Below, one piece after another: positions 15,017 through 32,970 of a stretch of DNA of 64,000 bases (its first letter is position 1; each line of letters starts with the position of its first letter). The position numbers and the translations under genes were made by a program. Location of the stretch: positions 32,001 through 96,000 of the forward strand of contig JBGPIA010000013.1 in NCBI GenBank assembly GCA_041484665.1, in the 5' to 3' direction. The stretch comes from Candidatus Krumholzibacteriia bacterium. Its GTDB lineage: Bacteria > Krumholzibacteriota > Krumholzibacteriia > JAJRXK01. The notes under the pieces are model-generated. The model worked only from the letters and a program-made list of their open reading frames with translations, made no database searches and was not told where the DNA came from.

Positions 15017-15051
15017 GGCAGAGTTCCCAATGCCCCGGGGAGGCCGAGATC

Positions 15052-15080
15052 ACTATAGAAGAATTTTGTCTGATAAACAA
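15052..15080 (-). promoter_or_regulatory. imuB sigma70 promoter with candidate LexA box
   Basis: Minus strand TTGTTT-17bp-TATAGT; the spacer contains AGACAAAATTCT (15060-15071). Confidence 0.75.
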
Positions 15081-15301
15081 ACGGTGGAAGAACGCCCCCT
15101 CGTTGCAAGATCGGCGAATGGCCCATGGGCCCGGCCAGGGGCGGCACCACGGCTGCGAGCCGAGCCGGCAGGTCTAAGGAATGTAACCACGCGGATGGCG
15201 TGCGTTCATTTCGCCGACGCTCTACCAGTGTCAAAGTCATTGAGTAGATTGACTCAATGCAATGACCCGCCTCCGAGGGCTCCAAGAGCCGTACCCATCC
15301 C

Positions 15302-16591
15302 ATGGAGTTCCAGCGCAAGAAACTGCTCGAGCCTCTCCTGCAACGCATTCATGAGCCTCGGCGCTCCTTGCTCGTGCTCGCCGGGCCGCGTCAGACTGGC
15401 AAGACAACGCTGGCCCTCCAGGCGGCGCGGGCCAGCGGACCGCGGGTGCGATATGCGCCCGCCGACGAGCCATCGCTGCGCGACCGCGTGTGGCTCGAGC
15501 AACAGTGGGACCTGGCCAGGGACCTCGCTCGCCGTGGGGCGCCCGCCGATACGTACCGTGCAGCGGGCCATAGCGGCGTCGGGGAAGCACTTCTGATCCT
15601 CGACGAGGTCCAGAAGATCGAGGGCTGGGCGGACGTGGTGAAAGCGCTGTGGGACGACGACACGGCGACGGGCCTGCCCCTGAGAATCGTGCTGATCGAA
15701 TCGTCCCCCGAGCACATGCAGCGCAGCCTAGACGCGAGCCTCTCCGGACGGTTCGAGCTGATCCATGTGCCGCACTGGTCCTTCGCCGAGATGCGCGATG
15801 CCTTTGGGTGGAGCGTCGACCAGTACATCTGCTTCGGGGGCTATCCCGGCGCGGCGCCCCTGATCGGCGAGCGACAGCGGTGGGCACGATACGTCGCCGA
15901 GTCGATCGTGGAGACCGCGGTGTCGCGCGACGTGCTCCTGACGACAAGGGTCGACAAACCAGCATTGCTGCACCGGCTGCTGCAGCTCGCCTGCGGGCAC
16001 TCGGGGCGGGAGCTCTCGTACCAGAAGATGCTCGGCCGGCTCGTGGACGCCGGCAATACGACGACGCTGGCGCACTATCTCGGGCTGCTGTCGGCGGCGG
16101 GGCTGGTGGCGGGGTTGCAGAAGTTCACCGGCGAGCAGGTACGGCAGCGTGGATCGAGCCCCAAACTGCAGGTATACAACCCAGCGCTCATGACTGCGTC
16201 GATGACCCTGTCGACGACTGCGCCGATGGGGATCGCGGCGGACGCGCCGCCGGCCGCCGCGCAGACCTTGGAGGACGTGCGCCACGATCCCGACCTGTGG
16301 GGTCGCCTCGTGGAGTCCGCCGTCGGGGCCCACCTGCTCAACGCGTCTGGCGCCGGAGGGTACGAGCTCTTCTACTGGCGCGACCGCAACCGCGTTGTGG
16401 ACTTCGTGGCGCGCGGTCAGCGCGGAATGCTCGCCATCGGGGTCAAGAGCAGCCAGCGGCGCCTGGTGGTGCCGGCACTGGAGTCATTTCGCAATGCGAA
16501 CCCGGGCATGCGTGCGCTGCTCATTGGTGGGCGCGGCATGCCGCTGGAAGCCTTCCTGCTGGCCGAGCCCGGGCGGTGGGTGGATGGGTAG
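15302..16591 (+). CDS. AAA_14 ATPase with C-terminal DUF4143 domain
   Basis: GPRQTGKTT, LILDEVQK, LSGRF, FGGYPG, SSPKL, GRLVESAVGAHL, YWRD...VDFV. Confidence 0.9.
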   Translation: MEFQRKKLLEPLLQRIHEPRRSLLVLAGPRQTGKTTLALQAARASGPRVRYAPADEPSLRDRVWLEQQWDLARDLARRGAPADTYRAAGHSGVGEALLILDEVQKIEGWADVVKALWDDDTATGLPLRIVLIESSPEHMQRSLDASLSGRFELIHVPHWSFAEMRDAFGWSVDQYICFGGYPGAAPLIGERQRWARYVAESIVETAVSRDVLLTTRVDKPALLHRLLQLACGHSGRELSYQKMLGRLVDAGNTTTLAHYLGLLSAAGLVAGLQKFTGEQVRQRGSSPKLQVYNPALMTASMTLSTTAPMGIAADAPPAAAQTLEDVRHDPDLWGRLVESAVGAHLLNASGAGGYELFYWRDRNRVVDFVARGQRGMLAIGVKSSQRRLVVPALESFRNANPGMRALLIGGRGMPLEAFLLAEPGRWVDG

Positions 16592-16818
16592 ATCCGCCGC
16601 GGGTTCAGCTCCGACGCGCTCCGGAGGTGCTAGAGGTCGCCCAGCGGACACTCCACCACGGCCAAAATGGTTGAGCAAAACTACTCGATGTCTTGAGCAA
16701 ATCGACGGGTGACGGGCACCATTCCCCCGCGATTCCGGTAAGCGCTTGCAGGGCGCCATCGTTGCCACTCCCCGGCAGATGGCATTCGAGTCGAAGCTAG
16801 CGACGGCTAGAAAAAGTC

Positions 16819-16847
16819 TTGACCGTGTTCGCTAAGTCAGCTAACAT
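16819..16847 (+). promoter_or_regulatory. Sigma70 promoter of the sigma-factor gene with overlapping operator
   Basis: TTGACC-17bp-TAACAT; GTGTTCGCTAAGTCAGCTAAC (16825-16845) fills the spacer and overlaps -10. Confidence 0.7.
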
Positions 16848-17065
16848 ATGGAACAAAGACGCATCCAATCTGGGACAGAAGGGCGTCCCCCCCCCCCGGA
16901 CCCAGAGGACAACCCCCTGGGACGAGCGGACATCCCACCCGGGTCCTGAAATCCGGCGGCCGGCGGCCTGGGCCCCGCCTGCAGATCTGCCTCAGCTCGC
17001 CATGGCCGGCCGAGGCCGCCCACGGGACCGACACTTCAGGATACAGACGCAAGAGGACGGAATCC

Positions 17066-17923
17066 ATGTACGAGGTCGAGAGAGGTTCGGATCGCCGCCA
17101 GGACCAGGCGCTGCAGCACTATCTCAAGGGGATCGGACGCTACCCGCTGCTGACCAAGGAGCAGGAGTTCGCGCTGGCCCGGCGCATCCGCAACGGCGAC
17201 GCCGCGGCGCTGGAGAAGCTCGTCTACTCCAACCTGCGCTTTGTCGTGAGCGTTGCCAAACGCTACGCGGGCCACGGCCTGAGCTTCCTGGACCTGATCG
17301 CGGAGGGGAACTCCGGCCTGATCACCGCGGCGCGCCGCTTCGATGAGCGGCGCACCTTCCGATTCATCAGCTACGCGGTGTGGTGGATCCGCCAGGCGAT
17401 CCAGAAGGCTCTGGCCGAGCAGACGCATACGGTGCGCCTGCCGATCAACCGCTCGCAGCAAGGTCAGAGGTTGCGCAGGATCAACAACCGCCTCGAGCAG
17501 AAGCGCGGCGGCTCCGTCCACGCGGAGGAAGTGGCCAAGGAGCTGCAGATCTCGGTGAAGAAGCTCTATGAGATCAACGCTGTGCTGCGTCCGCTGCTGA
17601 GCCTGGACGCGAGCCTGCACGACGACGACGGCCAGCCGTTGCAAGAGATCCTGGCGAACCCGGAGGATGCGACACCGGAGGAGAGCTTCGTGCAGGACGA
17701 GTTGCGGCTGCAGCTGGAGGCGGCGATGACGAAGCTCACGAACCGCGAGCGCAGCATCGTGATGCGCTACTACGGGCTCGAGGGCGACGAGTGCTCTTCC
17801 CTGGAGGCGATCGGCGAGGACATCAACCTCTCGCGCGAACGGGTACGGCAGATCCGCAACGACGCACTGCGCAAGATGCGCCACGCGGCGACCGGGGCTG
17901 GCCTGGGCGACTACCTTGCCTAG
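17066..17923 (+). CDS. RNA polymerase sigma70 factor, RpoD/RpoS-like, lacking region 1.1
   Basis: YLKGIGRYPLLT.EQE, NLRFVVSVAKRY, DLIAEGN.GL, FISYAVWWIRQAI, LSRERVRQI. Confidence 0.95.
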   Translation: MYEVERGSDRRQDQALQHYLKGIGRYPLLTKEQEFALARRIRNGDAAALEKLVYSNLRFVVSVAKRYAGHGLSFLDLIAEGNSGLITAARRFDERRTFRFISYAVWWIRQAIQKALAEQTHTVRLPINRSQQGQRLRRINNRLEQKRGGSVHAEEVAKELQISVKKLYEINAVLRPLLSLDASLHDDDGQPLQEILANPEDATPEESFVQDELRLQLEAAMTKLTNRERSIVMRYYGLEGDECSSLEAIGEDINLSRERVRQIRNDALRKMRHAATGAGLGDYLA

Positions 17924-17972
17924 CCGCGTCGCGCCTCCCACCAGGACAGCGCATTTCGAACGTTCGCGCGGT

Positions 17973-18086
17973 CCTTCGGGCGATTGTTCGGGCCGTTGTT
18001 CGGGCCGTTGTTCGGGTCATTGTTCCGGCCGTTGTTCGGGCTGTTCTTCGTCCCGCCCGGCGCGTCATTGTTCCGGTCATCGTTCG
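17973..18086. repeat. 12-bp tandem repeats (TTGTTCGGGCCG-like)
   Basis: About 9 imperfect units between the sigma and XRE genes. Confidence 0.8.
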
Positions 18087-18141
18087 ACGCGTCCGGCGCG
18101 CGGCCCAACGCCAGGGTCGATCGCCCTCGCCTGTGTTCGCC

Positions 18142-18567
18142 ATGTCAGCTAACGCGAGAAACAAAAAAACGACGCCCCTCGGTCAGGAGGTCCGGCGGCT
18201 CCGCTTGGAGGCTGGCGACACGCTGCGCGGGCTCGCCAAGAAGCTCTCCATATCGCCGGCACATCTGTCGGACATCGAGCACGACCGGCGCCGGCCCTCT
18301 GAGAACCTGCTGCGCAGGATCGCGCATGAACTCCGCGCTGTCGGCGCGACGTTCGCTTCGCTCGAGGTGCTCATCACTGGGATCGACCCCCAGACGCGCG
18401 AATGGGCCGCATCGACGCCGGGAGCGCGCGCGCTGCTTCGGAAGGTGCTCGGAGCGGGCGCGGACCCCCTCGAGATCCTCCGCGCTCTGGAGAAAGGCGT
18501 GGCGCGCAACGGACGCCGGAGCACCCGGAGAGCGCAGGGAACCGGAACGAACCGAAAGGTCCGCTGA
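18142..18567 (+). CDS. XRE-family HTH transcriptional regulator
   Basis: LGQEVRRLRLEAGDTLRGLAKKLSISPAHLSDIEHDRRRPSENLLRRIA. Confidence 0.85.
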   Translation: MSANARNKKTTPLGQEVRRLRLEAGDTLRGLAKKLSISPAHLSDIEHDRRRPSENLLRRIAHELRAVGATFASLEVLITGIDPQTREWAASTPGARALLRKVLGAGADPLEILRALEKGVARNGRRSTRRAQGTGTNRKVR

Positions 18568-18793
18568 CCGGGTTGGGCTCGCCCGAGATCGCGCTGAGCT
18601 GGAAGCCAGTGTCAGACGGATCCGGGCCATCCAAGGCCGCAAGCCCGTCTACCCGGCGTTGCGCCGGACGCTCCCCTCGGCGAGCACTGGATCGGTCCAG
18701 TCCCGGCCAGAAGGGACAGGCATCCTGGAGGCCTCTGCAGTCACAGGAATCCTGGAGCCCTCCGCGAGCCTTCCTTTGTCCGTGTAGACCGGG

Positions 18794-19261
18794 TCAACCC
18801 CGCTCTCCCTGATCCTGTTCCTGCGCGCTGCGATTCCCCGACACGATCCGCTCGTACTGCGTTTCCATGAGCGGACTCGACAGCATGAAGTCGGCGCTCG
18901 CGCGGTTGCACGCGATCGGCGTGTTGTACACCACCGCGATGCGGAGCAGGGCCTTCACGTCGACGTCGTGCGGGTGCGGCTCGAGCGGATCCCAGAAGAA
19001 GACGACGAAGTCGATGCGCCCCTCGGCAATTGCGGCGCCAACCTGCTGATCGCCACCCAGCGGCCCGCTCAGGAACCGCGTGACCTCCAGCCCGAGCTCG
19101 GCCGCCAGCAAGCCGCCCGTCGTCCCGGTGGCGTAGAGCTCGTGCCGCGCGAGCGTCCCCCGGTTGAAGCGGGCCCACTCCAACAGGTGCCCCTTGCGGT
19201 TGTCGTGCGCGATGAGGGCGATCCGCTTGCGCTCGGCCATGCGGACAGTGGGTCGGGTCAT
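18794..19261 (-). CDS. mgsA: Methylglyoxal synthase
   Basis: [48 protein letters not shown]. Confidence 0.97.
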
Positions 19262-19602
19262 TGCTGTCTCCACACGTTTCGGTGGGGGTGTCGAACGGTT
19301 CGCCGCATGGGTGGGGTTCGGTGCGCGGCGGGTCGCCGGGTCGGCCGATCGGTGCTCAACGCGGTGGGTCGGTTGGTCGGCCGACGGGCGCTGAACGCGG
19401 CGGGTGGATGTCGGATCGGCCGGTGGATGCTCGGACTGACCGGTGAGGGTCGGCTCTGCCGCTGAATGCCCGGATCCGCCGGTGGGTGCGGACTCGGCCG
19501 GCGAGCGTCGGGTTGGCCCGCGCCAAATCCGCCCGCACCACGTCCGCCCGCACCGATTCGGCCGGCACCCGAGCGAGCGTGGTCCCGGCGCCTGGACGAG
19601 CC

Positions 19603-20625
19603 TCATTTCTCGATCTTCATCGACTCCAGCGCCGTCGCAAACTCCTTCTCCGATACGTCCGGCCCGCGCTCGGGCCCGCTCATCCCGATGAGGAACACGA
19701 ACGACCCGCGCGGCACGATCCACATCCGCGTCAGCGTGCGGAATTGCAGGCTGTCGCCGGTCGAGAGTGTGTACTTGAACTTAGCGTGGGCGGCCTTCAG
19801 CCCGCAGACTACGGTCTCCTCGATGGGCGTCACCGTCTGGAAATCGGCATACGCGTGCTGGAGCGGCGCCATGGCGCCCTCGAGAAGCTTCGTCGCCGGT
19901 AGGCTGGCCAGGGCCCCGAGCGGCCTCAAACCGACCTGGATGCTCGGATTGAGATCGTCGTACGGCTCGGGATACTTCGTGAAGACGAACAGCGGCGCGC
20001 TCGCGCGCTTCTGGATGGCGTCCTGCAACTCGGCGTCGGAGAGGCGCACCCTTGCCCGGTTCTCCTCCACTTGCTGCAGCGATGCGGTGCTCCAGCCGGC
20101 GGGCCGGACCAGCGAGATCCCGGCCGTCGCGTTGTCGAAGCGCTCACCTCGGGGCTGGGTTGCTGGAGGGGTGGCTGGAGAGGACGGTTGGGCGGACGAC
20201 TGGGCTGGTGGCTGGGCGGACGATTGGGCGGGCGATTGGATGGACCGCTGAGCTGATGGCTGAGGTGATGGGTGGGCGGAGGACTGGGCCCCGTGATGGG
20301 GCACGGCCTGGTCTGAGGATGGAGCCAGTGGTTGGGGTGTAGGTGCATCGGTGGGCGACGCGGCGAACCGAGCGGGCGGCCGCGCCTCCGCTCGATGCGG
20401 CGCTGTGAGCGGCGCGGCTGCGAGCTGGACCGCTCCCGATCGGGTTTCCTGCGCGCGCGCGGTGGAGCCGGGGCCAGTGGGAAGCACAATCGCCACCAGC
20501 GCCGCGAGGGTGGCGAGCGCGGCGATCGCTGCCGACGCAGCGGGCCCGGCGACCGTGCCGGAGCGACGCAAGGCGGCGCGACCGGAGATGGCCCAAGGCG
20601 GGCTCGGGTGTTGGCGCTGCATCAT
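19603..20625 (-). CDS. Exported hypothetical protein with Ser/Pro/Gln repeat linker
   Basis: Hydrophobic N-terminal segment, 12-bp-repeat linker, globular C-terminus ([19 protein letters not shown]); TTGTCC-18-TACCCT promoter-like site at 20679-20708. Confidence 0.7.
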
Positions 20626-20792
20626 GACCCACCTCGCGAGGCTGCGTGCGATGAGAAGTGCGGGACCTTCCGGGCTCCAGGGTAGCGCCGTGCGCGGGGT
20701 GGGGACAAGGAGCGGGTCGGTGGCGGGTCGGCGGCGAGAGCGCGGCGGCTGCGGAGCTCGGGCCTTGGGAGGACAGCGGTCGCCCAGCGAAA

Positions 20793-21011
20793 GGTGTCCT
20801 GATTCCCGGGATGTGTCCTGAGATCATGACACATGCACAACTCCCTGCGATTGAATTGATTAACCGCGATACGCGGCCGCAGTGCCCGGCCAGCAGTACA
20901 CCCGGGTCAGCCACGACCGACAGTCCACATGCGGTGGTCCGATGTAAGTGACGCATCGACAAGCGATCAGACAGGTGTCCGAGCCCAGCGGTGTTGGGCA
21001 TGGCGACTGCT
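20793..21011 (+). promoter_or_regulatory. Candidate sigma54 promoter with upstream activator sites
   Basis: TGGGCATGGCGACTGCT (GG at 20997-8, N10, GC at 21009-10); tandem GTGTCCTGA sites including TGTC-N10-GACA at ~20794-20831; AT-rich IHF-like patch at ~20850-20863. Confidence 0.5.
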
Positions 21012-21172
21012 TTGTCTGCGGTGGAGCGAATGCCCGGCAGAGGGTGCTGGGCGCATGGTGCGGTGGTGCGACCGCACGCGGATTCTGGCGACTGCCGCAC
21101 GCTGATGCGACCGGTGGGGCCGCGCCCGGGCTGCCGATCAGGAGGCGGATCGAATGCAGCGAGGGCGCGAAT

Positions 21173-21420
21173 CAACTGCGAACGGCCGGATGGAGCGGGG
21201 CGGGGCGACGGGATTACGAGGGGCGACTGCGGACGGCCGGATCGTGCGGTCGCCGAGGTTGGAGGTCGACTGCGGACGGGTAGATCGAACGGGACGCGGC
21301 GACGGGGGCGCCAACTGCGAACGGCCGGTTCGCACCTGCGGTCGGACGGGGCTGCTGGCGGATGCGAACGTCGGCGAGGCCACCGACGATGGGACGCGAG
21401 AGGGCAGGGCGGCGAACGTC
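21173..21420 (+). repeat. Degenerate 43-51-bp tandem repeats (core CRACTGCGRACGGCCGGATCG)
   Basis: Cores at 21173, 21224, 21267 and 21312; weaker ones at 21359 and 21410. Confidence 0.6.
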
Positions 21421-22009
21421 CGTGCACTCCGTCAGCCTTGGTTCTGGTCCGGCGGGAGGCGATGAACATCGGGGCCACTCAGCGCCCAACGAATGCGACT
21501 GAACATTGAATGGCGCTCTTCTGACGGCGGCGGCCGGGTCCGGTCTGGACGAACCGCCTTCGTTCTTGGGACGCCTGGCGCCAAGGCCACAGTGGCTGGC
21601 CGTGATTGGATCTAGGACTTTTCCTTAGAATCGTTGCTTGTCCGCGGCTCGCGCCGCGCGACGGGAGGCTCCACAACATCAACGAGTGGACCGAACGCTG
21701 GGGGGCGTCCGGCCTTGCACCATTGTTACCCTCCCGGTGTGCACCCGAAGCACCCGCATTCGAGCGGCCAGTCCCTTGCCAGGCACGGGACCCCTCGCGG
21801 GCGTGGGCCCCCTCTCGTCAGCCGCTTGACAGAGCGCCCCGCTCGCAGGCAAGCTTATTCCGCGCGGTCAGGCTGGACTCGCCACCGCCTGATCCCCTCA
21901 CATCGCCTCCACTCCTGACGGAAAACATGGCGAGACGGGGCCTCCAGCGCCCGGATTTTTGGGCCAGGTTCGACGCGGCTCCGCCTCAGAACGCGATAGG
22001 AGTCGTCCG

Positions 22010-22420
22010 ATGCTCGCTCGCACCGCCTCCCGCTTTGCCGCGCACGCGCCTCTCACGCGCGCCATCGTGTGCCTGGTAGCAGCATTCGTATTGGGCACCA
22101 CATGCGCACCGCAGACGGCCTTGGCCAGTCGTCCACACATGGCGGACGCCTCTGGCGGCATGTACGCCAACGGCGACCCGGACGGAGGCCATGGCAAGCC
22201 ATTTGATCCGGGCGCGACCACTCTCGGGAGAGCGTCGACCGGGCTCGTTGGTGGGGGTGAGATCTCACCGAACACGGCGCGGGTCAATCAGCTCCGACAG
22301 CCGGCGACCGGCGAGACACATCGGCCGGTTGTTTTCAGTCCAGTGTGGGCGCACGCGAGCCGCAGCGGGTTTGTCTCACTCTTGACCTGGCTGGCATCTT
22401 TCGCCCGAAGCTGGAGGTAG
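22010..22420 (+). CDS. Small secreted precursor protein (136 aa)
   Basis: AGGAG RBS; signal peptide ending TALA; NGDPDGG segment; C-terminal amphipathic FVSLLTWLASFARSWR; stop 3 nt before the next ATG. Confidence 0.65.
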   Translation: MLARTASRFAAHAPLTRAIVCLVAAFVLGTTCAPQTALASRPHMADASGGMYANGDPDGGHGKPFDPGATTLGRASTGLVGGGEISPNTARVNQLRQPATGETHRPVVFSPVWAHASRSGFVSLLTWLASFARSWR

Positions 22421-22423
22421 GCC

Positions 22424-24982
22424 ATGGTTCGTGCCCCACTGCCGAACATCGAGCAACTGGCAGAATTGCATGAGAGGATCGCGGCAAGGGCGGACACGGT
22501 CCGGCCGTCTCCTTCGGCCCCGGTGGAGTTGCTATCGCTCGTTGAGGATCTCCTAAACGCTGGCGCCCCGGAGTTGGCTGGCCAGTTGATCGCAGAGCCA
22601 AACATCCCGCGCCCGAGTTCCGGTTCCGAGGCGGAGTCTCGGGCTCATCTACTTTTCGCACGCGTCCTCTACGAACAGCATCGGTGGGAGGAGTTGTTCT
22701 CGTTCGTGGAGTCGCACGAACGAGACCTGGAGCCTGAAGAGGCCGGACGGGCTTGCGTCCGAGCTGCCTGGGCTGCGCTCCTCTCAGGTGACGTGGCTCG
22801 CTGCAGCGAGTACGTGCACCGCACGATAGCGCACCAAGTTTCGGCTCGGTCCTTAGCCATCGCTGCAGATCTCGGCTTTTTGGGCGGCTACCGAGCCGCG
22901 CACACGGGTGGGGCGATCATTGAAGCCAAGCGTGAAGTCGAAACCGCGATCGCGCTGTATCGCCACGCGGGTGAGTCCCATTATCTGATTCGCGCGCTGC
23001 TACTTGGGGCAGCATTAGAACTAAGGCTCGGCAAGCTGGAGAGCAGCACTTCCTACGGACTCGAGGCTCTGGAAATTGCGGCGTCCAAAGGTAACGTATC
23101 CGAATCGGTTGGGGCGCTTGGAATCCTTGCAATCGTGCAATACCGGCAGGCGGCGTTTGACCAAGCGATCGAAACGATCGAGCGGGCGAATCGACTCTGC
23201 GTGTTGTTTCCAGGGCTCTTACGAAGTCACCAAGTAGGTCTTCTTGATGCTCGCGTGCAGCTCTTTCTTGGGAATTTGGACGCTGCGCGCTCTCGACTCG
23301 CCGATGTGGCGGAAACTCTCCGCGGTGCACCGAGCACCACGTCCTCAAGCCTAGTTGCGGAATACAACGGGTTAGCGTCCCTGCAGGCAGGTGACCCAAC
23401 GCGCGCGATGCAAGATTTTCGCGAGGCGGAAAACATTCTGAAGACTAGCTCTTATGACTCGTACTATGCGGCCGAGATACTTCTGCGCCAAGCGGAAGCG
23501 TCGTTAGAGTTGGGAGCCTACGAGGGTGCGCGAGACCTCGCCGGCCGCGCGCTCGCGATGAGCCGAGCTAGAGGGATCGAGCTGGAAGTCGGCCATATAC
23601 TCCGGGTGGACGCCCTGGCGAGGTGGTTCTTGGGAGACGGACAGGGAGCGCGTGCTACCTTGCGTGACGCCGAATCCCACCTCCGCCACATCGGCGACCT
23701 GTACGAAGTCGGCCGCGTCCTCCTTGCTCGAGCCGAGTTCCTGGCCGAGACGCCCGGGGCCGCCGTGGCTGCGGCTGCCGAGGCTCTGAACCTCTTCGAG
23801 CGCATGGGCGTGATCCACCTCGCCGACCGCGCGCGCGACCTGCTGGCGATCTCGCAGGTGCGCCAGCGCGCGGCGCAGGCGCACGCCGAGCACGCCCCCG
23901 ATCTGGATCAGTCCCGCTCGAACGACCCAGCGCGCTCGGCGCGAACGACCTCGGACGCTGCGGCTGCCCTCACGCCATCCACCACGCCGGCCATTGCGCC
24001 ATCCACCACGCCATCTCCCGCATTCGACCCGATCATCGACCTCTCGACCGGCCCCATCGTAGCCGCCTCCCCCGCCACGCGGGAAGTGCTCGCCAAAGCC
24101 AGGACCATCGCTCCCCACCCCGGCTCCGTCCTCCTCACCGGTGAGACCGGCGTCGGCAAGGACATCATCGCGCGCTTCATCCACGACCACAGCGCGCGCG
24201 CCGGGAGCGAGTTCGTCCCTGTCAACTGCGCCGCGATCCCCGACACGCTCTTCGAGCGCGAGCTGTTCGGACACGCCCGCGGCTCGTTCACCGGCGCCGA
24301 CCGCACGTCGCCGGGGCTCGTCGAGTACGCCAACGGCGGTACGCTGTTCCTCGATGAGATCGGCGAGCTGCCCATGCCCCTGCAGGCCAAGCTGCTGCGC
24401 CTGCTACAGGACGGCTCATTCCGGCGCGTCGGCGAGGCCCAGGAGCGCAAGGTGGACGTGCGCGTGATTGCCGCGACCAATCGCGATCTGGGTGGGCAGA
24501 TCTCCCAGAAGATCTTCCGCGAGGACCTCTGGTTCCGGCTGTCGCTGTTCGAGCTCGAGATCCCGCCGCTGCGGGCGCGCTCCGAGGATGTCATCCCACT
24601 CGTCCACTTCTTCCTGGAGCGCGAGAGCCGGCGCCTGCGCAACACTTTCTGGATGACCAAGGATGCGTGGCAGCTTATCAAGCGCTATGGCTGGCCGGGC
24701 AACGTGCGCGAGCTGGAGTCGGCGATCGTGAGCTCGACCGCGCAAGCGGGCAAGGACGGCTGCGTGCACACCGAGCACCTCCCGCGCTCGCTGCGCGGGA
24801 TGGGCAGCATCCCAACGTCGGTGACCCTCGACCTCACCAAGCATCTGGAGAACGAGGAGCGCCGCATGATCCTGCTGGCGCTGCAGCGCTCTCGCCAGAG
24901 CAAGGCCGAGGCGGCACGCTATCTGGGCATCAGCCGCAATTCGCTCTACGACAAGCTGAAACGGTTGGGAATCGAGGACTGA
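22424..24982 (+). CDS. Sigma54-dependent activator with N-terminal TPR-like helical sensor
   Basis: GETGVGKD, VNCAAIP, ELFGH.RGSFTGA, LFLDEIGE, WPGNVREL, Fis-type HTH; ~480 aa helical-repeat N-terminus. Confidence 0.93.
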   Translation: MVRAPLPNIEQLAELHERIAARADTVRPSPSAPVELLSLVEDLLNAGAPELAGQLIAEPNIPRPSSGSEAESRAHLLFARVLYEQHRWEELFSFVESHERDLEPEEAGRACVRAAWAALLSGDVARCSEYVHRTIAHQVSARSLAIAADLGFLGGYRAAHTGGAIIEAKREVETAIALYRHAGESHYLIRALLLGAALELRLGKLESSTSYGLEALEIAASKGNVSESVGALGILAIVQYRQAAFDQAIETIERANRLCVLFPGLLRSHQVGLLDARVQLFLGNLDAARSRLADVAETLRGAPSTTSSSLVAEYNGLASLQAGDPTRAMQDFREAENILKTSSYDSYYAAEILLRQAEASLELGAYEGARDLAGRALAMSRARGIELEVGHILRVDALARWFLGDGQGARATLRDAESHLRHIGDLYEVGRVLLARAEFLAETPGAAVAAAAEALNLFERMGVIHLADRARDLLAISQVRQRAAQAHAEHAPDLDQSRSNDPARSARTTSDAAAALTPSTTPAIAPSTTPSPAFDPIIDLSTGPIVAASPATREVLAKARTIAPHPGSVLLTGETGVGKDIIARFIHDHSARAGSEFVPVNCAAIPDTLFERELFGHARGSFTGADRTSPGLVEYANGGTLFLDEIGELPMPLQAKLLRLLQDGSFRRVGEAQERKVDVRVIAATNRDLGGQISQKIFREDLWFRLSLFELEIPPLRARSEDVIPLVHFFLERESRRLRNTFWMTKDAWQLIKRYGWPGNVRELESAIVSSTAQAGKDGCVHTEHLPRSLRGMGSIPTSVTLDLTKHLENEERRMILLALQRSRQSKAEAARYLGISRNSLYDKLKRLGIED

Positions 24983-25177
24983 GGGCGACTCTGGCGGGTC
25001 CTGGCCTGCGGGGCCCACGCGGGCCCGCGCTGGCGAGCGCGGGGTACCCGGGGGCGTCAGCGGCTCAGATGGCCGTGGCAAGTTTCCACGAGCGCGGGCG
25101 TGTGCGAGCGTACCCGGGCGCAATTCCCGCGGCCCATTCGCAGCCCATTCCCCGCTCGCGCGTCCCTTCACGCCCCC

Positions 25178-26107
25178 TCACGTCAATCCCTCCGGGCCCC
25201 TGCAGATCTCCTGGTGCCTCCACCCCGGCCCGCGCCGCTTGTCCTTGGTGACGACCAGCTCGCAGACGAACCGCTGCCCTTCGGCGCGGCGCACGCTGCC
25301 CTCGGCGCGCAGCGAGATGAGTGAACCCAGCCCAGTCCGCTCACCCTTGGTCAGGAACAGCAGCACCGCGTTGTGCTTCTTCACCAGCCCCGCCAACCGC
25401 GTGAGCGCGGGCTGCGTGACCTGTCCCCGTGGACCCTGCGCGCCCGCCGCCGCGAGATCCATCACCACCAGCCCGAACGCCCCGCTGCGCAGGAGCTGAT
25501 CGGCCGCGCGGGCCGCATTGGCAGCATTGGCGGCATTGGCTGCACTGGCAGCATTGGCTGCGCTGGCAGCGCCGGCCGCACCCGAGCTGCCGTTCAGGCG
25601 CACCACGGGCAACGCCGCCAGGTCGATCCCCCACGCTGCCATGTCGGGCGGGAAGAAGGTCGACCCGCCAACGGCGATCCACGCCACGGGCTGTCCACGA
25701 TGTTGGGCGTCGAGCACCAGCGAGGCCGCGAACGTCAGCAGCGGCGTCTGCCCGAAGCTGACGAGCTCGCACAGCCGGCCGCTGAGGGCGTCGAGGCTCC
25801 AGGACTTGCCACGGCCGGTGTCGGGTCGGGTGTCAGGTCTGACGTCAGGTCGGGTGTTTGGTCTGGCGTCGAGTCGAGTGTCGGGCCTGGCGTCGGGTCT
25901 GGCGTCAGGACTGATGCCAGAACGAGCGCCGGGCATGGCGTCGGAGCCGGCGCCGCGCCGAATGCCCGGCCAATCGTCAATCTGGCCATCCGGCTGGGGT
26001 AGAAGCTCGCCCTGGACCTTGCGCAGCACCTCGATGCTGCCCGCCGGCAAGGCGGAGGCCAGGGAGTCCGCGAGGGACTCGACGAACGAACGGGCGGCGC
26101 TTTCCAT
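25178..26107 (-). CDS. imuA: ImuA/RecA-like SOS mutagenesis accessory protein
   Basis: LSGRLCEL with degenerate Walker A, VAWI...FFPPD..WGIDL, AADQLLRSGAFGLVVMDL, LGSLISLR, KDKRRGPGW; GGAG RBS before ATG 26107. Confidence 0.82.
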   Translation of the reverse strand: MESAARSFVESLADSLASALPAGSIEVLRKVQGELLPQPDGQIDDWPGIRRGAGSDAMPGARSGISPDARPDARPDTRLDARPNTRPDVRPDTRPDTGRGKSWSLDALSGRLCELVSFGQTPLLTFAASLVLDAQHRGQPVAWIAVGGSTFFPPDMAAWGIDLAALPVVRLNGSSGAAGAASAANAASAANAANAANAARAADQLLRSGAFGLVVMDLAAAGAQGPRGQVTQPALTRLAGLVKKHNAVLLFLTKGERTGLGSLISLRAEGSVRRAEGQRFVCELVVTKDKRRGPGWRHQEICRGPEGLT

Positions 26108-26181
26108 GAGAACGCGCTCCGGTGCGGAGCCCACGGGGACCCGGGGGACCCGGGCGGTGCGTGGGGCGTCATGGCGTTCTC

Positions 26182-26210
26182 AGGATAGCAGACGTTTGTC
26201 TGAAAGACAA
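26182..26210 (-). promoter_or_regulatory. imuA sigma70 promoter with candidate LexA box
   Basis: Minus strand TTGTCT-17bp-TATCCT; the spacer holds the perfect palindrome AGACAAACGTCT (26190-26201). Confidence 0.8.
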
Positions 26211-26378
26211 GGTCGCGGTGAGATGTGGGCCGCTCGGAGCCCACCCTCCGCGGTGGGGCGAGATCTCGTCACCGCTCCGGTATCCGCAACCGCGGGATCC
26301 ACCGCCCGCCGGGACGACATACCGGTCGAAGTCGATGGGACGACGCGCCCGCGCCCGCGACTAACACTGCCAACGGGC

Positions 26379-27035
26379 TCATCGGCGATCGTCATCCTGC
26401 TCGGGCTTGTGGAGCCGCCCGTCGCCAACGGTCTCGACGACCTGGTCGTCGCGGTGCGTCGCGAAGCCCTGGGCCAGCTTGCGCGCGATCTCCTTCATGT
26501 CGACGGACCCGTCGGCCGCGCGCTGCACGCCGTAGACCGTGCTTGGGAAATCCAGCGGTTTCTGGACGGCCCAGATCCGCTCGTGCTCGCTCGGCGGGAA
26601 CAGCTGGGCGGGGTCGCCCACCGCTACCCACGCGATCGGCACGGTGACGCCGGGGCCGACGACGGTGTTCACGTGCACGACGCCGTTCACGCGCACCTCG
26701 GCGCCACGGCCGACGCGCGCGCCGAAGAATACCGTGACCCCCGTGGCGAGAAACACCTCGTTCTCGATCGTGCACCCCATCAGGCTGGCGTGCGGCCCGA
26801 CCAGTACGTGGCTGCCGATGTTCACCGGATGTCGGACGGTCGCGCGGAGCAGCGCCTGCTCGCGCACCACCACCGATTCGCCGAGCACGATTGGCGAGCC
26901 CTCGGCGACCAGCACGGCGCCGAATCCGATCTGGCAGTGCGGGCCGATCCAGACGTCGCCGCAGACAGTCGCCGTTGGCGCAACGTACGCGCTGGGATGG
27001 ATGGTCGGCGCCTTGCCGCGGTGCGTCAGAAGCAT
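26379..27035 (-). CDS. Gamma-carbonic-anhydrase-like hexapeptide repeat protein
   Basis: P.IHPSAYVAPTATVCGDV.IG, hexapeptide repeats, AVGDPA. Confidence 0.9.
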   Translation of the reverse strand: MLLTHRGKAPTIHPSAYVAPTATVCGDVWIGPHCQIGFGAVLVAEGSPIVLGESVVVREQALLRATVRHPVNIGSHVLVGPHASLMGCTIENEVFLATGVTVFFGARVGRGAEVRVNGVVHVNTVVGPGVTVPIAWVAVGDPAQLFPPSEHERIWAVQKPLDFPSTVYGVQRAADGSVDMKEIARKLAQGFATHRDDQVVETVGDGRLHKPEQDDDRR

Positions 27036-28582: not shown

Positions 28583-28641
28583 CCCGGCGGGGCCGTAAGC
28601 ACAAAGTGCATACGGCGCCTGGCTGTCCCGACACGCGCGAT
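28583..28641. repeat. Palindromic element homologous to 63808-63884
   Basis: CCCGGCGGGGCC-GTAAGCACAAAGTGCATAC...CCCGACACGCGCGAT. Confidence 0.55.
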
Positions 28642-28893
28642 CTGGACAGGCGAGCTTCGGATATACAATGTATGTCCGAGCTCGCAGGGGACAATCGTAG
28701 TGGGGCCTTCCATGCGCCCTGCTCGCGCTGCTTGCACTGCTCGCGCCAACCGCGACTCCAGCCGCCCAGAGCGCCCACTGCTCCAGCCGATCCCGCCGTC
28801 CAGCTTGAGGAATCGATCCGGTCGCGCGTACCATTGATGAACCGCCCCCAGCGCGGCACCAGGCTGCGCTGCCCCTCGACGCCCGGAGCGACC

Positions 28894-31800
28894 ATGCCCC
28901 GTCCCCAGTTCAGCATTCAGGCCGCGGAATTCCAGCCGCGCGCGGCCGCCCGGGCTTGGGCGCGGGTGGCAGTCCTCACCGCCGCTCTGAGCTGGGCCCT
29001 CGGCGCCGGGCCTCCCAGCGCTGCCGCCGCCACTACCCGCGCCGCCGACCGCGCCGCCGACCGAGCCACCGGCCGCACCACCGACCGAGCCACCGGCCGC
29101 ACCACCGACCGAGCCACCGGCCGCACCACCGACCGAGCCGCCGACCGCGCCGCCGACCGCGCCGCCGACTACGCCGCCGACCGCGCCACCCGCCGCGTCG
29201 CCGAGTTGACGCAGATCGATGGCCTCCTCGCCCATCACGCCTGGGGCGAGGCCGAGCGGCTCGCCGACACCGCCCGCGCGCGGCTCCTGGCGCAGCCGGC
29301 TCCCGACTCGCTGGCGGTCGCGGCCATGCTCACGCGGCTGGTGCTCGCCCGTGACCCCGGCTGTCGCTGGTGGGTTCCCGGCACGCGCGACCTTGCGCAG
29401 GAAGCGCTGGGGATCCGAGCCCGGCGGCTTCCGCCCGACGACCTGGACGTAGCGGCCAGCCAGCTCGCCCTCGGGCGGATCCTGTCGCGCGAAGCCGATT
29501 TCACCCACGCGCGCCCGCTGATCGAGACGGCGCTGGCATCCCGCGAGAAGGCCCGCGGCCCCGACGCACTCGAACTCGCCGCAGCGCTCGATGCGCTGGG
29601 CACGATACTCCTCGAGCTGGAAGAGACCGACGCGGCGGCCTCCCTGCTGGAGCGGGCGCTGTCGATCCGCGAAAAGGCGCTCGGACCCAACCATCCCGAC
29701 GTCGCGCTCAGCCTCAACTCCAGAGGGAATCTGCTGGTGGCGCAGGGCAAGTACACCGAGGCGCAGCCGGTGTATGCGCGCGCCCTCGCGATCCAGGAAG
29801 CGACGCTGGGAGCCAAGCACCTCGATGTGTCACAGACGCTGGTCAATCTCGTGGTGCTCGGTCGCGACAACGGAGCCTACCAGCAAGCGCGGCCGCAGGC
29901 CGCGCGCGCGCTCGCCATCCAGGAGGCTGCACTTGGACCGGTCAACGCCGAGGTCGGACGCACCCTCGATTACCTCGCGAGCCTCATCTACTTCGCGGGC
30001 GACTATTCTGGGGCGCAGTCGATGTGGGAGCGCTCGCTGCGCGTGCGCGAGCAGACGCTGGGCCAGGACCACCCCGATGTGGCCACCACCCTCACCAACC
30101 TTGCCCTCGTCTCCGAGTCCCAGGGCGACTACGCCGCCGCGCGCACCATGTACGATCGCGCACTGAGGATCTACGAGCAGGCGCTCGGTCCGGAGCATTC
30201 GCTCGTGGCGATCACCCTGAGCAATCGCGGCCACCTCGACAAGATGATGGGTGATTACGACTTCGCCCGCGCCGACTACGAACGCGCGCTGCGCATCAAA
30301 GAGAAAGCGATGGGTCCCGATCATCCCAGCGTCGCTACCAGCTTGGTCCACATTGCGAATCTGCTGCAGAACATCGGCGACTACGCCGGTGCGCGCCCCT
30401 ACTTCGAGCGCGCCCTGGCGATCTACGAGCGCACGCTCCGCGCCGACCATCCCAACCGTGCGAGCGTCCTCAACAGTCTCGCCGTTGGCTACGAGCGCAA
30501 CGGGGACTCGCAGCGGGCGCGTCCCTACTTCCAGCGCGCCCTCGACAGCTACCAGAGGAGCCTTGGCCCGCGGCATCCGTGGGTCTCCAGCATCCAGCTC
30601 AATCTGGGCGATTCGCTGCGCAAGACCGGGGAGTTGGCGCGGGCGGACTCGCTGATTGCGGCCGCGCTCGCGACGCGCCGCGAGATGCTCGGCGAGGACC
30701 ATCCGTTCGTTGCCGAGGCGCTGGGCCGCCGGGCGTTGCTGGAGTGGGCGCGGGGCAACCTCCGGGTGGCTCTGGAATCGAGCCTGGCGGCCGAGCGGAT
30801 CGGCCGCGCGCACCTGCAGCTCACGATCCCCACGCTCCCCGAGCGGCAGGCGCTGCTCTATGCCGCGGTGCGATCGTCGGGGCTCGACCTGGCGCTGTCG
30901 CTGGTGGAGCGCGGGCCGATCGGCAGGCAAGTGAGCCGCCAGCCGGGCGGCGGCCAGGCCGAAGCCGGCCGAAAGGGCGCTCGCGCGCAGGCAGCCCACA
31001 AGCGGGCAGCCCGCAATCAGGCGGCCCGCTCGCTGGACGCGACCACCGGGCGCCGCGTCTGGGACGCGGTGATCGGATCGCGAGCGCTGGTGCTCGACGA
31101 GATGGCCGAGCGCCGCCGTACTGCGCGGGCGGAGGCCGCAGCCGCGGCGGACTCCGAGACGGCCGCGCTGTTCGCCAAGTACGGCGCGGCCACGGAAGCG
31201 CTGGCCAAGCTGATGGTCCAGCAGGTCGGGACGAGCACGGCCGACGAGCTGCGCGCCAAACTCGCCGACGCGCGCGAACGTGCGGAGCAGGCCGAGCGTG
31301 CACTCGCCGAGCACAGCGCCACGTTCCGCAGCCACCAGGCGCGGGCGAATCTGACGTTGTCGGATGTCGCCACGGCGCTGCCGCCGCGTAGCGCGCTCGT
31401 GGGCTACGTGCGTTACCGCCGCGTGGAGCCGGCGCCGCGCAGCGGCGGGCAGGATCACACCGAGCCGGCGTATCTTGCGTTCGCGCTGTCGCAGGGACGG
31501 GCGGCCGGCGGCGGCGCGTCCTCCGCCGCAGCGCTTTCGCAGGTCTCGTGCGTCTCGCTGGGCGATGCGGCACAGGTCGAGGGTTTGGTCACGCGCTGGC
31601 GCGACGAGGTCACGCGCGGGCCGCTCCTTACCGGTCGCAGCCCGGCTGCCGCCGACGCCGCCTGCAGGATTGCGGGCGCCGAGCTGCGCGCGGCCGTGTG
31701 GGATCCCGTGGCGCGCCACCTCGCCGGCGCCGAGCGCGTCTTCGTGGTGCTCGACGGGCAGTTGAACATCGTCAACCTGGCGGCGCTGCCCGGCGCGGAC

Positions 31801-32970
31801 GGCCGTTACTTGGTTGAGACCGGTCCGCTGCTCCACGTGCTCAATGCGGAGCGCGACCTCGTGCCCGAGCAGCCGGGGGCGCCACAGCCGGCAGGCGCGG
31901 GCCTGCTCGCGGTCGGTGGGGCGGCGTTCGATGACGCCGCGGCTACGATCGCTTGGGCAGCGGCGGACGCAGGCACGAGTGCCAGCGCAGGCGCAGGTGA
32001 ACGCGGCAGCGCCGCGGTGGCCACATTCCGCGGTGCGCTCTCCGGCTGCGCTGCCTTCCACGATCTGCGCTTCCCGCTGCTGCCCGGCTCCAGCGCCGAG
32101 GTGGAGGAAGTCGCTGCGCTGTGGGAGGGCGCGCCGCAGCCGGCTTCCGCCGTCACGCGCCTGGATGGCGCACAGGCCAGCGAGGAGGCCGTCAAGCAGC
32201 TGGCTCCGGGCCACCGCGTGCTGCACCTGGCGACGCACGGCTTTTTCCTTGGCCCGGGTTGCTACGCCAGCTCGCCCTCGGGGCGCGGGGTCGGAACGCT
32301 GGCGTCGGCCGGCGCTGCGACTGGAGCGGCACCGGCGACAACGTCAACAGGAAGTTCAGCGGGAGCCTCAGCGGGAGTCTCAATAGCAACGTCAACGGGA
32401 ACCTCGACAGGAGCAGCAACCGGACCGCCAGCCGGAGCGACGGCTGGAGCGACGACGGGAGCGGCGCCGGGAGTGCCAGCGGCACTGGCATCGACAGCGG
32501 CACCGGCACTTGCGCCAACTTCCGTCGAGGAGTCCAACCCATTGCTGCTCTCGGGCCTCGCGCTCGCCGGAGCGAACCGTCGCAACGAGGCCGGTCCGCA
32601 GCAAGACGATGGTATCCTCACTGCCGAGGAGATCGCGGTCCTCGATCTGCGCGGTGTGGAGTGGGCTGTGCTCTCGGCCTGCGACACGGGGCTGGGCGAG
32701 ATCGGTGCCGGCGAAGGGGTGTTCGGGCTGCGCCGCGCGCTGCAGCTGGCCGGCGCGCGCACTGTGATCCTCAGCCTGTGGGGCGTCGAGGATGAGGCCG
32801 CCCAAGAGTGGATGCGGCAGCTCTACCGCGCGCGGCTTCTCCAGCACCTCGATACAGCCAACTCGGTGCGCGAGGCGAGCCTGGAGCTCCTGAAAGCGCG
32901 CCGCGCTCGCCGATCGTCGACGCATCCATTCTATTGGGGCGGCTTCATCGCTGCGGGCGATTGGCGGTAG
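28894..32970 (+). CDS. TPR-repeat (kinesin-light-chain type) CHAT-domain caspase-like protease, signal-peptide-like N-terminus
   Basis: Repeated LG.HP.VA.L.NL TPRs; HLATHG and LSACDTG dyad motifs; HPFYWGGF; GGAG RBS before ATG 28894. Confidence 0.92.
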   Translation: MPRPQFSIQAAEFQPRAAARAWARVAVLTAALSWALGAGPPSAAAATTRAADRAADRATGRTTDRATGRTTDRATGRTTDRAADRAADRAADYAADRATRRVAELTQIDGLLAHHAWGEAERLADTARARLLAQPAPDSLAVAAMLTRLVLARDPGCRWWVPGTRDLAQEALGIRARRLPPDDLDVAASQLALGRILSREADFTHARPLIETALASREKARGPDALELAAALDALGTILLELEETDAAASLLERALSIREKALGPNHPDVALSLNSRGNLLVAQGKYTEAQPVYARALAIQEATLGAKHLDVSQTLVNLVVLGRDNGAYQQARPQAARALAIQEAALGPVNAEVGRTLDYLASLIYFAGDYSGAQSMWERSLRVREQTLGQDHPDVATTLTNLALVSESQGDYAAARTMYDRALRIYEQALGPEHSLVAITLSNRGHLDKMMGDYDFARADYERALRIKEKAMGPDHPSVATSLVHIANLLQNIGDYAGARPYFERALAIYERTLRADHPNRASVLNSLAVGYERNGDSQRARPYFQRALDSYQRSLGPRHPWVSSIQLNLGDSLRKTGELARADSLIAAALATRREMLGEDHPFVAEALGRRALLEWARGNLRVALESSLAAERIGRAHLQLTIPTLPERQALLYAAVRSSGLDLALSLVERGPIGRQVSRQPGGGQAEAGRKGARAQAAHKRAARNQAARSLDATTGRRVWDAVIGSRALVLDEMAERRRTARAEAAAAADSETAALFAKYGAATEALAKLMVQQVGTSTADELRAKLADARERAEQAERALAEHSATFRSHQARANLTLSDVATALPPRSALVGYVRYRRVEPAPRSGGQDHTEPAYLAFALSQGRAAGGGASSAAALSQVSCVSLGDAAQVEGLVTRWRDEVTRGPLLTGRSPAAADAACRIAGAELRAAVWDPVARHLAGAERVFVVLDGQLNIVNLAALPGADGRYLVETGPLLHVLNAERDLVPEQPGAPQPAGAGLLAVGGAAFDDAAATIAWAAADAGTSASAGAGERGSAAVATFRGALSGCAAFHDLRFPLLPGSSAEVEEVAALWEGAPQPASAVTRLDGAQASEEAVKQLAPGHRVLHLATHGFFLGPGCYASSPSGRGVGTLASAGAATGAAPATTSTGSSAGASAGVSIATSTGTSTGAATGPPAGATAGATTGAAPGVPAALASTAAPALAPTSVEESNPLLLSGLALAGANRRNEAGPQQDDGILTAEEIAVLDLRGVEWAVLSACDTGLGEIGAGEGVFGLRRALQLAGARTVILSLWGVEDEAAQEWMRQLYRARLLQHLDTANSVREASLELLKARRARRSSTHPFYWGGFIAAGDWR

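Follow-up and report, generated by a model that had tools for sequence, protein, structure and literature searches.

Does a small, predicted exported protein act as the signal for a transcriptional activator encoded immediately behind it? This question is raised by a two-gene cassette in the window, i.e., the 64,000-nucleotide stretch of contig JBGPIA010000013.1 (GCA_041484665.1) of a Candidatus Krumholzibacteriia bacterium that was analyzed here. The first gene (22010..22420, + strand) is a small open reading frame (ORF) of 136 aa, and the second (22424..24982, +) encodes an 852-aa sigma-54 enhancer-binding protein with tetratricopeptide repeats (TPRs) and no membrane span. The best explanation, to which we assign a probability of roughly 0.55, is that the small protein would be exported, trimmed, and re-imported, and that its binding to the TPR region would switch the activator, with signal and receptor occurring as allele-specific pairs. 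The evidence that carries this reading is the pairing of the two genes among relatives, the selection acting on the small ORF and its motif, and one joint exchange of the small-protein tail and half of the sensor.

The gene pair and its conservation

The small ORF follows a Shine-Dalgarno sequence (AGGAG, 21998..22002) and encodes a predicted Sec-exported precursor. Its predicted signal peptide (residues 1–39; 22010..22126) consists of a basic N-region, a hydrophobic helix at residues 13–32, and an AxA-type cleavage site (ALA|S, within TALA|S at residues 36–40), without a lipobox. Further on lie an acidic Gly-rich core (MYANGDPDGGHG at residues 51–62), the conserved linear motif G55-D-P-D-G-G-H-G-K63 (22172..22198), which is the candidate signal core, and a C-terminal aromatic amphipathic helix (residues 119–135; 22364..22414) with a hydrophobic moment of 1.09, too polar for a membrane span. 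The structure model consists of the two helices with an unstructured stretch between them, and no structure is predicted for the remainder of the mature protein either. The window's small protein has no Pfam match, and no meaningful NCBIfam match was obtained among 71 small proteins (best E 0.014). The ribosome-binding site (RBS) of the activator (GGAGG, 22413..22417) is located within the final codons of the small ORF and only 3 nt separate the stop codon from the activator ATG at 22424, suggesting that the two genes are likely translationally coupled.

The activator has a weak MalT-like TPR match in Pfam (residues 113–416), followed by Sigma54_activat (545–711), the AAA lid, and HTH_8, with an E-value of 1.4e-64 for the AAA+ match (PF00158); receiver, GAF, and PAS domains gave no hits at E ≤ 0.1. 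Within the AAA+ domain (24056..24802), the Walker A (GETGVGK), Walker B (LFLDEI), arginine-finger region (FREDLWFRL), and lid are intact, as is the loop, which is a GSFTGA variant in the window copy and GAFTGA or GAYTGA in all five of the closest family members; a Fis-type helix-turn-helix (HTH; 24845..24967) ends the protein. AlphaFold2, based on a 69-sequence alignment, folds residues 1–490 into a 24-helix solenoid (pLDDT 93), for which the best solved fold matches are MalT domain III, subunits of APC/C, LGN, and a phage Rap with its pheromone bound. The architecture of the original prediction, a small ORF with RBS, signal peptide, Gly-rich core, and aromatic helix ending 3 nt before an activator whose N-terminus of about 480 aa is TPR-like and lacks receiver, GAF, and PAS domains, was confirmed by the ORF reading, Pfam, and the structure models.

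The solenoid divides into a variable N-half (residues 1–312; 22424..23359) and a conserved C-half (23360..23890), in which E313, E351, R355, E388, R394, and E428 are nearly invariant and lie on alternating helices. Positions of the N-half and the stretch 344–354 vary by clade. Residue 351 is acidic (E or D) in each of the 138 paired rows, and E351 is missing from three of four family activators without a small ORF, although two of these three orphans are sisters, and E351 is thus only a hint of a ligand marker. A word-index search with TPR residues 1–480 returned only the window's own protein, a profile search of 50% representatives returned mostly generic TPR proteins, and Atlas yielded generic TPR clusters only. 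A complex prediction of TPR residues 1–485 with a 36-residue motif fragment (score 0.02, mark 0.32) is used neither for nor against binding.

As judged from the available genomes, the pair of small ORF and activator is conserved across Krumholzibacteriota. The TPR region was matched in 123 of 201 genomes of the phylum and in 9 of 10 of the order. A first set comprised 85 loci examined out of 168 TPR matches, of which 13 were set aside: four without upstream DNA, two with the AAA+ domain off the contig (both with the small ORF), one with both genes frameshifted, and three giant activators of 1,400–1,600 aa and three TPR proteins without AAA+, none of these six having the small ORF. Among the remaining 72 activators, 69 have the small ORF upstream (68 by script and one by eye) and three do not. 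The second set, the best 80 of 102 loci of the TPR-GAF class, includes 75 with room upstream, and 73 of these pass the scripted test, the other two being one frameshifted copy and one without the ORF. The sets share at least six loci, and related loci are not independent. These counts bear out the original expectation of an adjacent small signal-peptide ORF with a GDPD-like motif. As a background, 27 of 2,130 long genes of the host genome (1.3%, excluding the host's two TPR activators) have a loosely defined motif-bearing hydrophobic ORF upstream, compared with 96–97% of the homologous activators, and the pairing thus exceeds chance. None of the 24 other bacterial enhancer-binding proteins (bEBPs) of the host genome whose start was placed by the gene-start model is preceded by such an ORF.

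All that the 138 distinct small proteins (91–136 aa) have in common is an export signal, G-[DE]-[PAGDQ] followed by extensions that depend on the clade (GDPLDTND, GDPIDGNDF, xEPGEDPHL, GEPGHDP, GDADDY, and GDPxGG), and, in most cases, an aromatic segment. The presence of a hydrophobic core was among the criteria by which these proteins were selected; beyond it, 135 have a net-basic N-region, 116 an AxA-like site, and one a lipobox, and 102 have at least two aromatic residues within the last 30 positions. Most homologous small ORFs are preceded by a purine-rich, RBS-like sequence. Spacing to the activator varies between −29 and +95 nt, with many loci at −11 to +4 nt, and the motif lies 41–92 residues from the end of the small protein. 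In one clade (L043, L052, and L055), the motif Gly directly follows the AxA site as residue +1, which fits the expectation for a processed N-terminus; in other clades the motif lies further in.

Several variants of the cassette were observed. At L074 (6985–7767, genome G042), two tandem small ORFs precede one activator and have SGDPDGG[DE]G in common with divergent flanks. The hydrophobic element varies among clades (L007–L029, L109–L160): the tail of the GDPLD/GDPID class is predicted to resemble a beta-hairpin, and GDADD-class proteins carry an aromatic segment ahead of the motif. Giant activators of 1,400–1,600 aa with a long N-terminal extension (L032, L061, L071, and L081) form a separate clade without the small ORF or the conserved groove residues. 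One or both cassette genes contain frameshifts or a premature stop at L072 (G057), L041 (G023), and L101, which may represent sequencing errors or decay. In the TPR-GAF sister class, which lies upstream of predicted exported proteins, a sigma-54 site scored against a consensus occurs within 500 nt downstream in 38 of 58 loci compared with 6 of 276 control windows, and the TPR-activator family plausibly serves sigma-54.

Selection and exchange of alleles

Codon comparisons indicate purifying selection on the small ORF, with the strongest constraint on the motif. The proportion of nonsynonymous differences was below that of synonymous differences (pN < pS) in all 14 close pairs, and the corresponding substitution rates agreed (dN < dS) in all 13 pairs with defined dS. 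Pooled pN/pS was 0.106 for the nine motif codons, 0.49–0.58 for the other parts of the small ORF, 0.24 for the TPR region, and 0.159 for the AAA+ domain, although the motif window was picked for its conservation, which makes the motif contrast partly circular. Motif type tracks TPR clades, and different motifs occur on paralogs of one genome.

The original prediction had proposed a fast-evolving or swapped specificity module on a conserved output domain, and support for this idea comes from an allele comparison within the window's own family. Locus L188 and genome G052 (L004/L075) are mostly 97–100% identical over 1.5 kb upstream of the cassette and through the signal peptide to the motif, and high identity resumes from about codon 311 of the activator onward. 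Identity drops to only ~45% in the 1.1-kb block between, which comprises the small-protein tail and the first ~310 TPR residues, and the motif reads GDPGGGEL in one allele and GDPDGGEL in the other (Gly to Asp). The TPR N-half of L004 is closer to that of another species' L181 (63–88%) than to that of L188 (36–70%). At the protein level, P0155 and P0157 have identical AAA+ regions, whereas their N-halves are only 28–45% identical. In relatives, the unit that was swapped has one border slightly within the motif and the other close to TPR residue 311, and the output domain is unchanged. Because the tail was exchanged together with half of the sensor in near-identical strains, the small protein and the activator likely form an allele-specific signal and receptor, and because the unit runs from the motif to residue ~311, the ligand may exceed the 5–10-mers of the RRNPP type. 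A deeper form of the module idea did not stand: domain swapping at that level was rejected, as the TPR and AAA+ trees agree and a step in GC content at fourfold degenerate sites (GC4) of more than 0.15 occurs in only 7 of 67 homologues, three of these seven being among six family members.

In the window copy, GC content at third codon positions (GC3) is 0.73 in the small ORF and 0.59–0.69 in TPR codons 1–420, and rises to 0.86–0.91 in TPR codons 421–480, the AAA+ domain, and the HTH (linker 0.81). The change point at codon ~417 (range 411–456; nt ~23,670) falls where the AT-richer peptide and TPR region had been predicted to end (~23680), with the contrast mainly at third positions, since the total GC of the small ORF (0.67) is barely lower than that of the genome (0.695). 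The step is not an assembly chimera because contigs from other sediment runs span it without differences. The step may best be explained by an import of the same kind of tail and TPR block that was older or longer. Contigs of 8 sediment runs (of 24 listed DNA runs) carry only the window's allele and no second one. No RNA run was among the sequencing runs listed.

Possible roles of the small protein

In the proposed mechanism, the small protein would be exported by Sec and trimmed to a fragment starting at or near the Gly-Asp-Pro motif. The fragment would be re-imported by Opp/Dpp and would bind the TPR solenoid of the cytoplasmic activator encoded next to it, and the activator would in turn switch sigma-54-dependent transcription at other sites in the genome; activation is assumed as the sign of control by analogy with NprR and PlcR. 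The invariant Gly-acid core may dock on the six conserved residues of the TPR C-half, and the variable N-half may recognize the residues that follow the core. The resulting pairs would be allele-specific (pherotype-like), and strains would trade them through recombination in the interval from the motif to the E313 helix. The genomic expectations of the original prediction were all borne out; export, processing, import by Opp/Dpp, TPR binding, the effect on activity with its sign, and the targets are what we infer from them, and the prediction is in this sense partly supported.

Several observations weigh against this mechanism. The homologues have no conserved protease site flanking the motif, and four family activators (L063, L067, L082, and L111) lack the small ORF. 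The precursors are longer than RRNPP propeptides (91–136 aa, with 6 of 138 at or below 100 aa), and the retained aromatic amphipathic helix could tether the precursor to the membrane and hinder diffusion. Opp/Dpp are near-universal (11 of 14 control genomes) and are not encoded beside the cassette, and there are two membranes to cross. The largely congruent TPR and AAA+ trees confound the predicted co-variation of peptide and TPR with descent, so that the match between motif and TPR clade by itself shows shared descent; the direct evidence is the exchange in the window's own family. The exchange block was seen in one close pair only, with none in the other close pairs listed, which belong to other families, and the second allele, L188, rests on one metagenome contig. 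With the whole tail inside the block, a ligand of ~70 residues is indistinguishable from a short signal. Lastly, no sigma-54 promoter adjoins the window cassette (best 5/8) and no conserved neighbor genes are shared around cassettes of the window type; the targets of the activator are probably in trans.

Among the alternatives, the one that survives best, with an outside but real chance of being correct, is a cell-autonomous export checkpoint, in which the unexported precursor binds the TPR region in the cytoplasm and Sec export removes it, so that the activator reports the state of secretion or the envelope without re-import. FlgM-like logic offers a parallel. No return passage across a membrane is needed, the movement of the whole tail with the TPR N-half suits a long ligand, the overlapping stop and RBS would yield 1:1 synthesis, and the sister class lies upstream of predicted exported proteins. 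However, allele exchange between near-identical strains and alleles common to species (L004 with L181) are hard to explain for a private sensor. The motif at the mature N-terminus in one clade also speaks against the checkpoint, and communication between cells is favored over a private checkpoint because of the allele exchange.

An unlikely alternative is a contact- or vesicle-delivered identity tag, where the mature protein would be bound to the membrane via the amphipathic helix and passed to touching cells, in which a long fragment would meet the TPR region as a form of short-range kin recognition. The length and amphipathic character of the precursor, the aromatic residues near the C-terminus of most small proteins, and the exchange of the tail and TPR N-half as a single block agree with such a tag, but there is no delivery machinery near any cassette, and the structure of the tail is not conserved, as the GDADD class has its aromatic segment before the motif and a polar tail. 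It is still less probable that the small protein is a co-transcribed passenger with a periplasmic or surface role of its own (e.g., metal binding or Asp-Pro self-cleavage) while the TPR region senses something else. The acidic Gly-rich motif and the four activators without a small ORF would suit a passenger, but 96–97% linkage persists despite unrelated neighborhoods, three of the four orphans lost the otherwise invariant E351, and many members are without Pro or with Glu-Pro, for which reason Asp-Pro autocleavage was rejected as a general mechanism. A leader or arrest peptide that sets activator translation in cis by export activity without binding the activator is the least probable of all: the stop of a signal-peptide ORF does overlap the activator RBS, but in SecM/VemP-type export monitors the conserved arrest motif is found close to the stop codon at a set distance, whereas here the motif lies at varying distances of 41–92 residues before the stop and the gap to the activator spans −29 to +95 nt, and both the restriction to TPR activators and the joint exchange with the TPR N-half would be left unexplained.

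Re-import and TPR binding, the preferred reading, would draw on functions present in the host genome (5.45 Mb, GC 69.5%), which encodes sigma-54 (rpoN; TIGR02395 above the cut-off), BamA, and parts of Opp/Dpp. The host has a paralogous cassette (L031, 3166–6728; G000:C3) that consists of a 114-aa signal-peptide ORF with GDPDD and a TPR-GAF-AAA+ activator, with a strong sigma-54 site 202 nt downstream and, further on, a conserved gene for a predicted exported protein or lipoprotein. The window cassette is located in a ~10-kb stretch (15016–25178) that parts imuA from imuB, which are adjacent in three of four family relatives. This insert also holds an AAA_14 ATPase, a sigma-70-family gene, a small HTH-like ORF, a secreted protein, and an ORF that we take to be methylglyoxal-synthase-like. 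The sigma-70-family gene (17066) was considered as a nearby target and rejected for now, as no sigma-54 site scoring at least 5.5 lies upstream of it.

Upstream of the cassette, TTGACA (21826..21831, +) is a possible but weak sigma-70 −35 element with a poor −10 and also occurs upstream of the small ORF in three of six other family loci compared; a consensus scan found no full promoter ahead of the cassette. A moderate sigma-54-like site (5/8) at 21767–21783 (−), not conserved in family loci, points away from the cassette to four imperfect 41-nt direct repeats (21172–21351; 43–51 nt spacing) in the 1.4-kb upstream gap, which could be enhancer sites or a degenerate coding repeat. The repeats are without an Rfam match, as is the whole region 15,000–26,500 at E ≤ 0.1. 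Elsewhere in the window, a TPR-CHAT (caspase-like) protein of 1,454 aa (28606–32970), whose N-terminal segment appears signal-like, adjoins lexA.

Comparison with known signalling systems

Re-imported peptides with cytoplasmic TPR receptors have been described for Gram-positive Bacillota. The RRNPP systems among them, as defined, have a Sec-secreted propeptide of 10–100 aa and a receptor of 250–500 aa with TPRs, encoded by directly neighboring genes (PMC10075063). The cassette likewise pairs a small protein bearing a predicted signal peptide with a cytoplasmic TPR regulator encoded next to it, as in NprR/NprX and PlcR/PapR (PMC10075063; PMC4147580), with a 3-nt gap in the window and adjacency in 69 of 72 and 73 of 75 homologous loci. 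NprX also provides an example of an active peptide that lies internally and of pherotypes (PMC4147580), similar to the internal conserved stretch and pherotype-like alleles of the cassette, and a phage Rap is among the fold matches of its TPR region. The differences are in size, with a precursor of 136 aa compared with 21–50 and a receptor of 852 aa (~490 aa for the TPR part alone, with ~12 helix pairs) compared with 285–473, in output, with a C-terminal AAA+/Fis-HTH acting on sigma-54 rather than an N-terminal HTH or phosphatase, and in the host, which has an outer membrane (BamA). By analogy, the cassette would therefore work like NprR/NprX without being an RRNPP member, departing in two of the five defining features (propeptide length, as for all but 6 of the 138 homologues, and receptor length); the RRNPP-like label of the original prediction holds for the logic and not for family membership. 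Existing surveys would miss such cassettes because both precursor and receptor are beyond the size limits of RRNPP_detector.

Compared with bEBPs, the activator has the familiar clade-6 AAA+ domain, GAFTGA-type loop, Walker motifs, and HTH (PMC7175178). The input domains of groups 1–5, as tabulated in that review, are receiver/PRD, PAS/V4R/ACT, GAF, or none, and "TPR" occurs zero times in it; none of the five groups accommodates a TPR solenoid that has an exported partner of its own, and the nearest logic is that of group 4, protein binding in trans (PMC7175178). The best fold match to the TPR region, MalT domain III (PDB 1hz4; E 1.5e-7, TM 0.51/0.66), is accompanied by the weak TPR_MalT profile match, but identity is only 14% and MalT is without an adjacent exported partner. 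MalT belongs to the STAND ATPases, responds to maltotriose, and works at sigma-70 promoters.

No description of a small protein paired with a TPR-sigma-54 activator was found in the open literature, as represented by listings and the beginnings of abstracts, consistent with the original view that the system is uncharacterized, and we regard the cassette as real and as a hitherto undescribed variant of peptide-receptor signalling with sigma-54 as its output. More speculatively, and at somewhat less than even odds, it may be a self-recognition language used across this Gram-negative phylum, in which motif and tail are the signal, the receptor is a 12-repeat TPR joined to a sigma-54 AAA+ motor, and recombination shuffles the alleles of both as a single cassette anchored on two conserved binding elements. 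Among diderms, it would then be the first peptide quorum system with a cytoplasmic receptor, and it would represent a new class of input to enhancer-binding proteins. Specificity can be tested directly in E. coli, thanks to natural allele pairs whose output domains are identical. If the signalling reading is correct, a peptide- or protein-sensing class would be added to the enhancer-binding proteins, and a system parallel to that of the Bacillota, driving sigma-54 in an uncultured diderm phylum, would imply that the same logic evolved again with a different output.

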